DNA of 63,830 nt, counting the filler, from Rozella allomycis CSF55 (lineage: Eukaryota), in assembly GCA_000442015.1 (NCBI GenBank). It is 14 parts of 14 records of this genome, joined end to end, with 100 filler letters (N's around TTAATTAATTAA, not from the genome) between each part and the next. Parts side by side here need not be neighbours in the genome. Positions count along the whole stretch, not along the records: positions 9,882 to 13,017 come from KE560542.1; 13 more parts are not named here. The stretch is one strand, 5' to 3'. The notes below the pieces were generated by a model. It was not told the DNA's origin. It searched no databases and saw nothing but the letters and a program-made list of their open reading frames with translations. This document shows, one piece after another, positions 12,221 through 13,017 of this stretch; positions within the stretch are counted from its first letter, which is position 1, and each line of letters starts with the position of its first letter. A program made the translations under genes and the position numbers.

Positions 12221-13017
12221 TTATTTTGAATCCGCCAATTTATCACTCCTTGGTTTATCGATTATGTATGCACGTCCAAATATATCAGGTTCTTTGTGAC
12301 TTTTATCCATGGTCCAGAATTCATCTATTTGTTAAATACAGGCAGCAATTACCTTTAGCTGTGTATCGAGTAAGAGGAACGTCAAAAGGAAGTGGGAAGT
12401 AAATGCATTTGTCGCTTGACTTTTCTGGATTATAAGTGAAAGAATACTATTATGTAAGTAGAGATTGATTACTTCTGGGCCAAAAAGAGAGGGGCAGATA
12501 AAGACTCCTAATNCTATAAGTGAAAGAATACTATTATGTAAGTAGGGATTGATTACTTCTGGGCCAAAAAGAGTGGGGCAGATAAAGACTCCTAATTCGT
12601 AATTCATCATGAATAATTGGCTTCCATTCTTTTCCTTAGCCCCCCTTTCATAAAGCCAAGAAATAAATACCATGCTGCTTTGGAAAGATTGGCACTAGTG
12701 ACTACCACGTATTTTATGGTCTCAGTAGTTTCATCGAGGCGACAGTATATCAAATATGAAGGAAATGGATACTTTTACTTTTGAATGAGGAATATTTCCA
12801 GTTCTAGTTGATTTATCAGCTTTCCATGAATGGCAAAGAGGCAATAGGAAATCCCTTTGCTTTTCCAAAATACTAAAGCGTGCTGGAAGGCAGTCTCCCC
12901 CATCATATCCTTCGACACTATGAAATTTAGTAGAGTTGCTTACGATTCTCTAACATTTAACACGGTAGGATAGATAAGTTTTAGCATGGAAGGCGAGTAC
13001 CCAGCTAAATAATTGAC
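12221..13017 (-). CDS. TDP1: Tyrosyl-DNA phosphodiesterase 1, C-terminal part (5'-truncated)
   Basis: Spliced: YPTVLNVRESVEGYDGGDCLP...IPHSK|IYCR...[13 protein letters not shown]...NYELGV...LPFDVPLTRY...EPDIFG. Four GT-AG introns plus one apparent GT-TG intron. Confidence 0.93.

Follow-up and report, generated by a model that had tools for sequence, protein, structure and literature searches.

In annotated fungal genomes, 98.7% of the introns are GT-AG, and all terminal pairs beyond GT-AG, GC-AG, and AT-AC add up to 0.26% (PMC7072748); a GT-TG pair is not named in the main text of that survey. In human, a genome-wide study described TG acceptors in 36 genes, in each case as an alternative to an AG no more than 28 nt away and never as the only acceptor (PMC2374985). 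Compared with these documented sites, a sole TG acceptor that is needed for a catalytic motif and ends an intron of 28 nt would be new. During the analysis of a 63,830-nt stretch of DNA (hereafter designated the window), we found that a tyrosyl-DNA phosphodiesterase-type gene (TDP1) contains a candidate for such an acceptor.

The window consists of 15 small contigs (1–9.8 kb) of eukaryotic DNA with about 33% G+C, which are separated by identical 100-nt spacers (44 N, TTAATTAATTAA, and 44 N; at 9782–9881, 13018–13117, 16336–16435, and 11 more places), and contigs adjoining here are not necessarily neighbors in the genome. The gene content marks the DNA as fungal: encoded in the window are a Ste12-like factor, which has STE and C2H2 domains and is nearest to an Atlas cluster from Mucoromycota, and a cullin, whose best matches are from early-diverging fungi of several phyla with only 50–58% identity. 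Two tRNA genes with identical Rfam scores of 69.3 bits are located on different contigs (20927–20999, minus strand; 39811–39883, plus strand). Remains of retrotransposons are represented by a chromodomain open reading frame (ORF) at 25004–25444 (plus strand) and a Ty3-type gag ORF at 58379–58951 (plus strand), the latter followed by a frame change. A long ORF at 35942–38026 (plus strand) is composed of two near-identical halves separated by single Ns, which probably reflect either another pair of alleles left uncollapsed or the tandem duplication of a gene for a P-loop protein.

The segment with the TG end (12751–12778) is located on the contig at 9882–13017, and the gene carrying it is TDP1, encoded on the minus strand. 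Only the C-terminal half of TDP1 is visible, the gene being cut by the contig end at 13017, beyond which a contig of a DNA sequencing run (X1) extends for 563 nt. Membership in the family PF06087 (Tyr-DNA_phospho) was evident from exon C alone, which scored 30.3 bits against the curated cut-off of 22, and exons B and D matched adjoining stretches of the profile with 13.0 and 14.6 bits, respectively. The visible half is otherwise intact, and its four other introns are canonical. The features are as follows.

12944–13017, minus strand: exon A (ending in LKLIYPTVLNVRES), assigned by translation; it adjoins the 100-nt spacer, with the upstream half of the gene off the contig.
12918–12943, minus strand: intron 1, 26 nt, GTAAGC..ATAG, canonical.
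12779–12917, minus strand: exon B, whose 3′ end encodes the catalytic H-S-K (CAT TCA AAA, 12787–12779); PF06087 profile positions 301–351.
12751–12778, minus strand: candidate intron 2, 28 nt, GTAAAA...TTTG (GT..TG), placed from the profile and the human alignment, with the genomic sequence confirmed in X1 and X2.
12745–12772, minus strand: alternative 28-nt reading, GTATCC...ATAC, with GTATCCATT at 12772–12764 and TCCTTCAT at 12763–12756.
12671–12750, minus strand: exon C, bearing the N of the H-K-N motif; PF06087 profile positions 352–379.
12721–12750, minus strand: 30-nt stretch from the TG to the next AG (12722–12721), encoding 10 residues.
12645–12670, minus strand: intron 3, 26 nt, GTATTT..AAAG, canonical, at the profile junction 379|380.
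12557–12644, minus strand: exon D (GAKEKNGSQLFMMNYELGVFICPTLFGPE); Pfam profile positions 380–405.
12420–12556, minus strand: intron 4 plus an assembly artefact, with a read joint 12429>12514 in X1 and X2.
12353–12419, minus strand: exon E (SSDKCIYFPLPFDVPLTRYTAK).
12325–12352, minus strand: intron 5, 28 nt, GTAATT..ATAG, canonical.
12221–12324, minus strand: last exon with the stop codon TAA at 12223–12221.

The artefact in intron 4 (12430–12513) consists of a second allele that was left uncollapsed around the N in position 12513, and the true length of this intron is either 26 nt (first AG, 12556–12531) or 53 nt. Use of the AG at 26 nt, which is in frame, retains nine extra residues (YSFTYSPEK) and presumably brings the loop length nearer to that of human TDP1 than does the 53-nt model. 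Exon E, which gave no match in a Pfam search when used alone, is taken by us to be similar to the C-terminus of human TDP1. Single Ns occur on this contig also at 11322 and 11800, each of the three being flanked by a near-duplicate of 76–124 nt. Because the contigs of the DNA runs skip them, the near-duplicates are uncollapsed second alleles rather than tandem repeats. Between the two copies at 12513, one codon (T/S) and one intron base are different. No relatives of this TDP1 were found by word-index searches with the ORFs of exons B and C, and the sole match of a scan with exon B, a metagenome locus (L001), was on reading an unrelated gene.

On the minus strand, CAT TCA AAA (12787–12779) is followed by gtaaaagtatccatttccttcatatttg (12778–12751) and then by ATA TAC TGT CGC, so that the 28-nt segment splits the second H-K-N motif of TDP1; these letters and coordinates agreed on rechecking with those of the original prediction. 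Read through without splicing, the HSK frame gives VKVSISFIFDILSPR and, as had been pointed out, runs into a stop codon, which is the TGA at 12733–12731 after 15 codons. Removal of the 28 nt gives an H-to-N distance of 23, the predicted spacing and that of the human TDP1 chains, which align with the spliced product without any gap (HIKTYMR vs HSK|IYCR, with H, K, Y, R, and a stretch of ten residues matched). The second H-x-K...N motif with the spacing of the family is present only once 12751–12778 is removed and is absent both without splicing and with the longer intron considered in the prediction. In the latter case, the first downstream AG, which ends at 12721 and is the sole one before the TSAN codons, forms an in-frame GT-AG intron of 58 nt, at the cost, as anticipated, of ten residues corresponding to ten profile positions right after the catalytic lysine. 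Moreover, exons B and C meet at positions 351 and 352 of the PF06087 profile, a junction that is seamless solely when exactly these 28 nt are taken out, and the canonical junctions of an rRNA dimethylase gene in the same window, used as a control of the method, were equally contiguous (profile 25|26 and 110|111). The agreement with the profile and the human protein is more than chance, because the 30 nt at 12721–12750 are open in the correct frame and place Y and R exactly as in human TDP1. With a G+C content of 43% and a positive codon-usage score (+2.6), these extra 30 nt of the 58-nt intron also look like exon.

The exact position of the segment was compared by scoring the boundary readings piecewise against the PF06087 profile. 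The upstream and downstream pieces scored 13.0 + 30.3 bits for HSK|IYCRL, 14.1 + 29.3 bits for HSKV|YCRL, and 14.1 + 26.7 bits for HSKVK|CRL, the last leaving profile positions 353–354 unaligned. Five 28-nt windows keep K-[I/V]-Y, of which only 12751–12778 starts with GT, those shifted by −1, +1, +2, and +3 starting with AG, TA, AA, and AA, respectively. This GT is the only canonical donor compatible with both the frame and the profile, and AT..AC terminal pairs led to wrong frames or additional residues. On these sequence comparisons, the boundaries 12751–12778 are the most economical ones, and the predicted 28-nt intron gives the best model of the coding sequence. Folding of the RNA at 12711–12800 was no better than that of shuffled sequences (z +1.22).

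The introns of the window were surveyed with a codon-usage score trained on its 15 longest ORFs, picking GTA segments that join two open, coding-like frames where read-through soon meets a stop codon; acceptors were searched 24–33 nt downstream of the donor. An AG acceptor within this range was found for 59 of the 96 passing GTA donors, with lengths of 24 (1 intron), 26 (11), 27 (15), 28 (12), 29 (9), 30 (3), 31 (5), 32 (1), and 33 nt (2) and a mode of 27 nt, among which the 28 nt of the TDP1 segment falls, in line with the size argument made originally. The filters of this census missed the TDP1 junction itself, and its sensitivity is low for short exons, so that additional non-AG introns may have escaped it. 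In the 42 best-supported introns, the G+C content was 25.7% (sd 6.8), and the letter most often seen at position −3 was T (21 introns), followed by A (14) and C (7), with no case of G. The TG segment fits this class in its length, G+C content (28.6%), T at −3, and GTAAAA donor. Thus, when it is judged as a U2-type intron, the 5′ end has the GT (GTAAAA at 12778–12773, a hexamer that starts other local introns too), the length and composition are those of the local class, and the 3′ end has TG (12752–12751) in place of AG. For a fungus, such small and homogeneous introns (GTA..AG, 24–33 nt), which have no clear polypyrimidine tract, are extreme; a narrow literature search found no description of such an ultra-short intron regime in fungi.

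Longer introns that appear in the window dissolve into the same short class. An apparent 60-nt intron at 583..642 resolves into a 26-nt intron and an N artefact. In the Dim1-like gene for the rRNA dimethylase, intron 1 (52 nt at 60463–60514, minus strand) consists of two tandem 26-nt GTAAC..AG units arranged head to tail (GTAACA..AAAG and GTAACA..ATAG), both of which must leave to restore the profile junction 25|26; it is either a single intron of 52 nt or a pair of introns that directly adjoin, the exon between them having a length of zero. Among the homology-supported introns above 33 nt that were checked, none failed to resolve into 26-nt units. Because the apparent longer introns checked dissolve in this way, a 58-nt intron in TDP1 would be an outlier to the local class. 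A looser scan, in which 27 of 62 shortest AG solutions exceeded 33 nt, none of them with support from homology, was noisy and was not used for the counts.

The TG was then compared with the contigs of two DNA runs from two studies carrying the same organism label (X1 and X2), which are contigs rather than raw reads, are not from independent strains, and may in one case be the data of the assembly itself. A 1109-nt contig of X1 covers 12514–13017 with 0 differences at a word depth of 370, and a contig of X2 covers 12736–13017 with 0 differences at a depth of 214. In the nearby regions where the haplotypes branch (12305–12417 and 12035–12254), the depths of the two branches are 110 + 263 in X1 and 98 + 107 in X2. 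Because these branch depths sum to the depth of each run at the site, both haplotypes carry the TG. No alternative letter at the TG was present at 10% or more in the X1 and X2 contigs, from which rare variants are dropped; the contigs of two further runs (X4 and X6) have no cover at 12717–12926, and the evidence for the TG comes from X1 and X2. These results show that the TG is genuinely present in the genome, on one haplotype as well as the other, as the original prediction had required. The haplotypes are identical across 12514–13017 (at least 500 nt, including the TG intron). Next to this identical segment, about 400 nt covering the 3′ end of TDP1 and the region downstream (12035–12417) differ between the haplotypes at many sites, with many substitutions and small indels.

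Collectively, genuine use of the TG at 12751–12778 by splicing is the reading that we tentatively favor, at somewhat short of even confidence, and TG as the sole acceptor of this intron is a well-founded but unproven interpretation of the sequence. According to this reading, 12751–12778 would be a genuine spliceosomal intron of the ultra-short class (GTA start, 24–33 nt) with TG at its 3′ end, and an active TDP1 would require the ligation of exon B (..PHSK) to exon C (IYCRL..TSAN) at the TG. Presumably, the 3′ site in such tiny introns is set mainly by the distance from the 5′ site and the branch point, the final G being kept and the second catalytic step accepting U at −2, perhaps with a lower efficiency. 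The in-frame AG located 30 nt further on may compete with the TG or be used to a minor extent, like the AG in the TG-AG tandems of human.

The principal alternative, possible although rather unlikely in our estimate, is that an ordinary GT-AG intron of 28 nt recently underwent an A>T change at −2 (..ATTAG to ..ATTTG), which would have left TDP1 null or weakened. Either the intron would then be retained and the frame would end prematurely at the TGA after 15 codons, or splicing would shift to the distal AG, and the gene would be a young pseudogene or a tolerated loss in this strain. The TG is indeed one base away from the common local endings ..TTAG and ..TAG, all 59 census introns use AG, and TDP1 is dispensable in yeast, which counts for such a loss. 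The identity of the haplotypes over at least 500 nt is also compatible with a homogenized segment, in which loss of heterozygosity made a new mutation homozygous. Furthermore, human mutants with AG changed to TG activate nearby AGs without splicing at the TG (PMC2374985). On the other hand, the presence of the TG on both haplotypes in both runs, the intactness of the rest of the visible TDP1, and the length of the 58-nt intron, outside the class of 24–33 nt, all speak against this explanation. The allelic differences in exons D and E also lean toward synonymous ones; by codon reading, they comprise four synonymous third-position changes and three conservative replacements (A>S, Y>F, and T>S), a weak sign of purifying selection (p about 0.07 against a neutral 25% synonymous). 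Moreover, the window has a second GT..TG candidate of class length (53608..53583), and two independent crippling mutations of acceptors among about 60 introns would be unlikely.

This second candidate (53583–53608, minus strand; 26 nt, gtaatcatttttttaatcctataatg) was found in the census within a gene for a coiled-coil protein. At the same donor, a 47-nt GT-AG intron ending at 53562 is also in frame; the two readings differ by exactly seven residues, and both the frame and the heptad register fit either of them. Having no usable homology, the segment is an ambiguous candidate for a GT..TG intron. It was one of only four among the 37 donors without an AG solution in which both flank scores were 10 or higher, the other three lying at or beside a canonical intron. 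In 50 pairs of ORFs with a change of frame, a GTA..AG solution of 24–33 nt was present in 31 and a TG solution in 7, which is at the background level, as the other non-AG dinucleotides gave 1–12 each. The ORF pairs lacking a short GT-AG solution corresponded to gene ends and starts, N artefacts, and retroelement frameshifts, not to non-AG introns. AG being the acceptor in all 59 census introns, the organism uses AG as a rule. The TDP1 segment had been put forward as the strongest single case for relaxed recognition of 3′ splice sites, and this broader part of the proposal did not hold: a general relaxation is not supported in this window, because AG dominates the census and only one further, ambiguous TG candidate was found. 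A more specific form of the idea is regarded by us as unlikely: the spliceosome of this deep-branching fungus would choose the 3′ site by a ruler, without strict recognition of AG, and U2-type introns could have TG as their only and constitutive acceptor, as in TDP1, perhaps in the candidate at 53608..53583 as well, and at a per-cent level genome-wide.

Another explanation, which we consider very improbable, is a U12-type or U12-derived intron located 6 nt downstream (12772..12745, GTATCC...ATAC) with TCCTTCAT as the branch site, whose product (HSKVK|CRLDE..) has an unchanged H-to-N distance. The consensus sequences of U12-type introns are RTATCCTTT at the 5′ end and TCCTTRAY at the branch site; GTATCCATT matches the former at 8 of 9 positions and is directly followed by TCCTTCAT, which matches the latter at 7 of 8. 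The branch site of U12-type introns is located 10–15 nt before the 3′ end; by our count, the distance from the branch A would be 12 nt for an intron ending with AC and 6 nt for one ending with TG. The composite GTATCC-N(0–12)-TCCTT occurs once in the window against an expectation of 0.28 (64 kb, both strands), but the motif was spotted after the fact, RTATCCNTT alone is at the chance level (5 found, 5.6 expected, the other four lying outside introns), and, on our reading, two or more of the 42 ordinary introns contain TCCTT too. The 5′ motif also sits 6 nt inside the junction favored by the protein, and splicing there replaces the Y of the profile and human TDP1 with K, with a loss of 2.6–3.6 bits, and uses GT-AC, an undescribed terminal pair. 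A search of the window against Rfam yielded the two tRNAs only, and a literature search on TDP1 and U12-type introns found nothing related. According to a survey that excluded introns under 30 bp, minor introns tolerate non-AG ends and are present in many early-diverging fungi, but 28 nt is far below the shortest reported ones, those of Blastocystis having a median of 39 bp (PMC10639083). Finally, an error of the assembly or consensus, with A as the true base, is the least probable of all, since the poor quality of the assembly, in which the contigs are small and alleles remain uncollapsed beside single Ns, is outweighed by the TG in the X1 and X2 contigs, at the depths given above and from two studies.

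If the TG is used, a U2-type spliceosome could process an intron whose single 3′ site is a dinucleotide other than AG, the acceptor would sit in an essential part of an enzyme, and the tolerance would be tied to the extreme shortness of the intron, offering a natural test of site choice in the second step. If the ruler reading is also true, TG would for the first time be known to act alone as an acceptor in an organism whose introns are otherwise GT-AG. Gene callers restricted to GT-AG would truncate TDP1 or drop the ten residues beside the catalytic lysine. If the TG is unused, the gene would be an ordinary young loss-of-function allele.

Among the known systems, U12-type introns resemble the segment in the GTATCC and the TCCTT-type, branch-site-like motif within it and in that minor introns can have non-AG ends (PMC10639083), and they differ in that the motif here lies 6 nt inside the favored junction and the length is far below that of the described minor introns. 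The protein is like human TDP1 (PF06087; structures such as 1jy1 and 6dhu) in the second H-K-N motif, a conserved stretch of ten residues, and the H-to-N distance of 23, the C-terminal half alone being on this contig. Also close are the ultra-short GTA..AG introns of the same genome, with which the segment shares the GTA start, the length of 28 nt, the AT-rich composition, the T at −3, and the restoration of frame and homology by removal, and from which it differs in the last dinucleotide, TG against AG in all 59 census introns. The TG-AG tandems of human (Szafranski et al. 2007, PMC2374985) come from a study of introns outside the 28-nt regime; they are alike in having a GT intron ending with TG, a pyrimidine (here T) at −3, a purine (here A) at +1, and an AG downstream, which is in frame here, so that the pair has the look of such a tandem. 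The two acceptors of the human tandems are at most 28 nt apart, whereas the AG here is 30 nt from the TG, and the human TG is always an alternative site (PMC2374985), in contrast to the TG described here, which the conserved TDP1 protein needs, use of the AG costing it ten residues beside the catalytic lysine.
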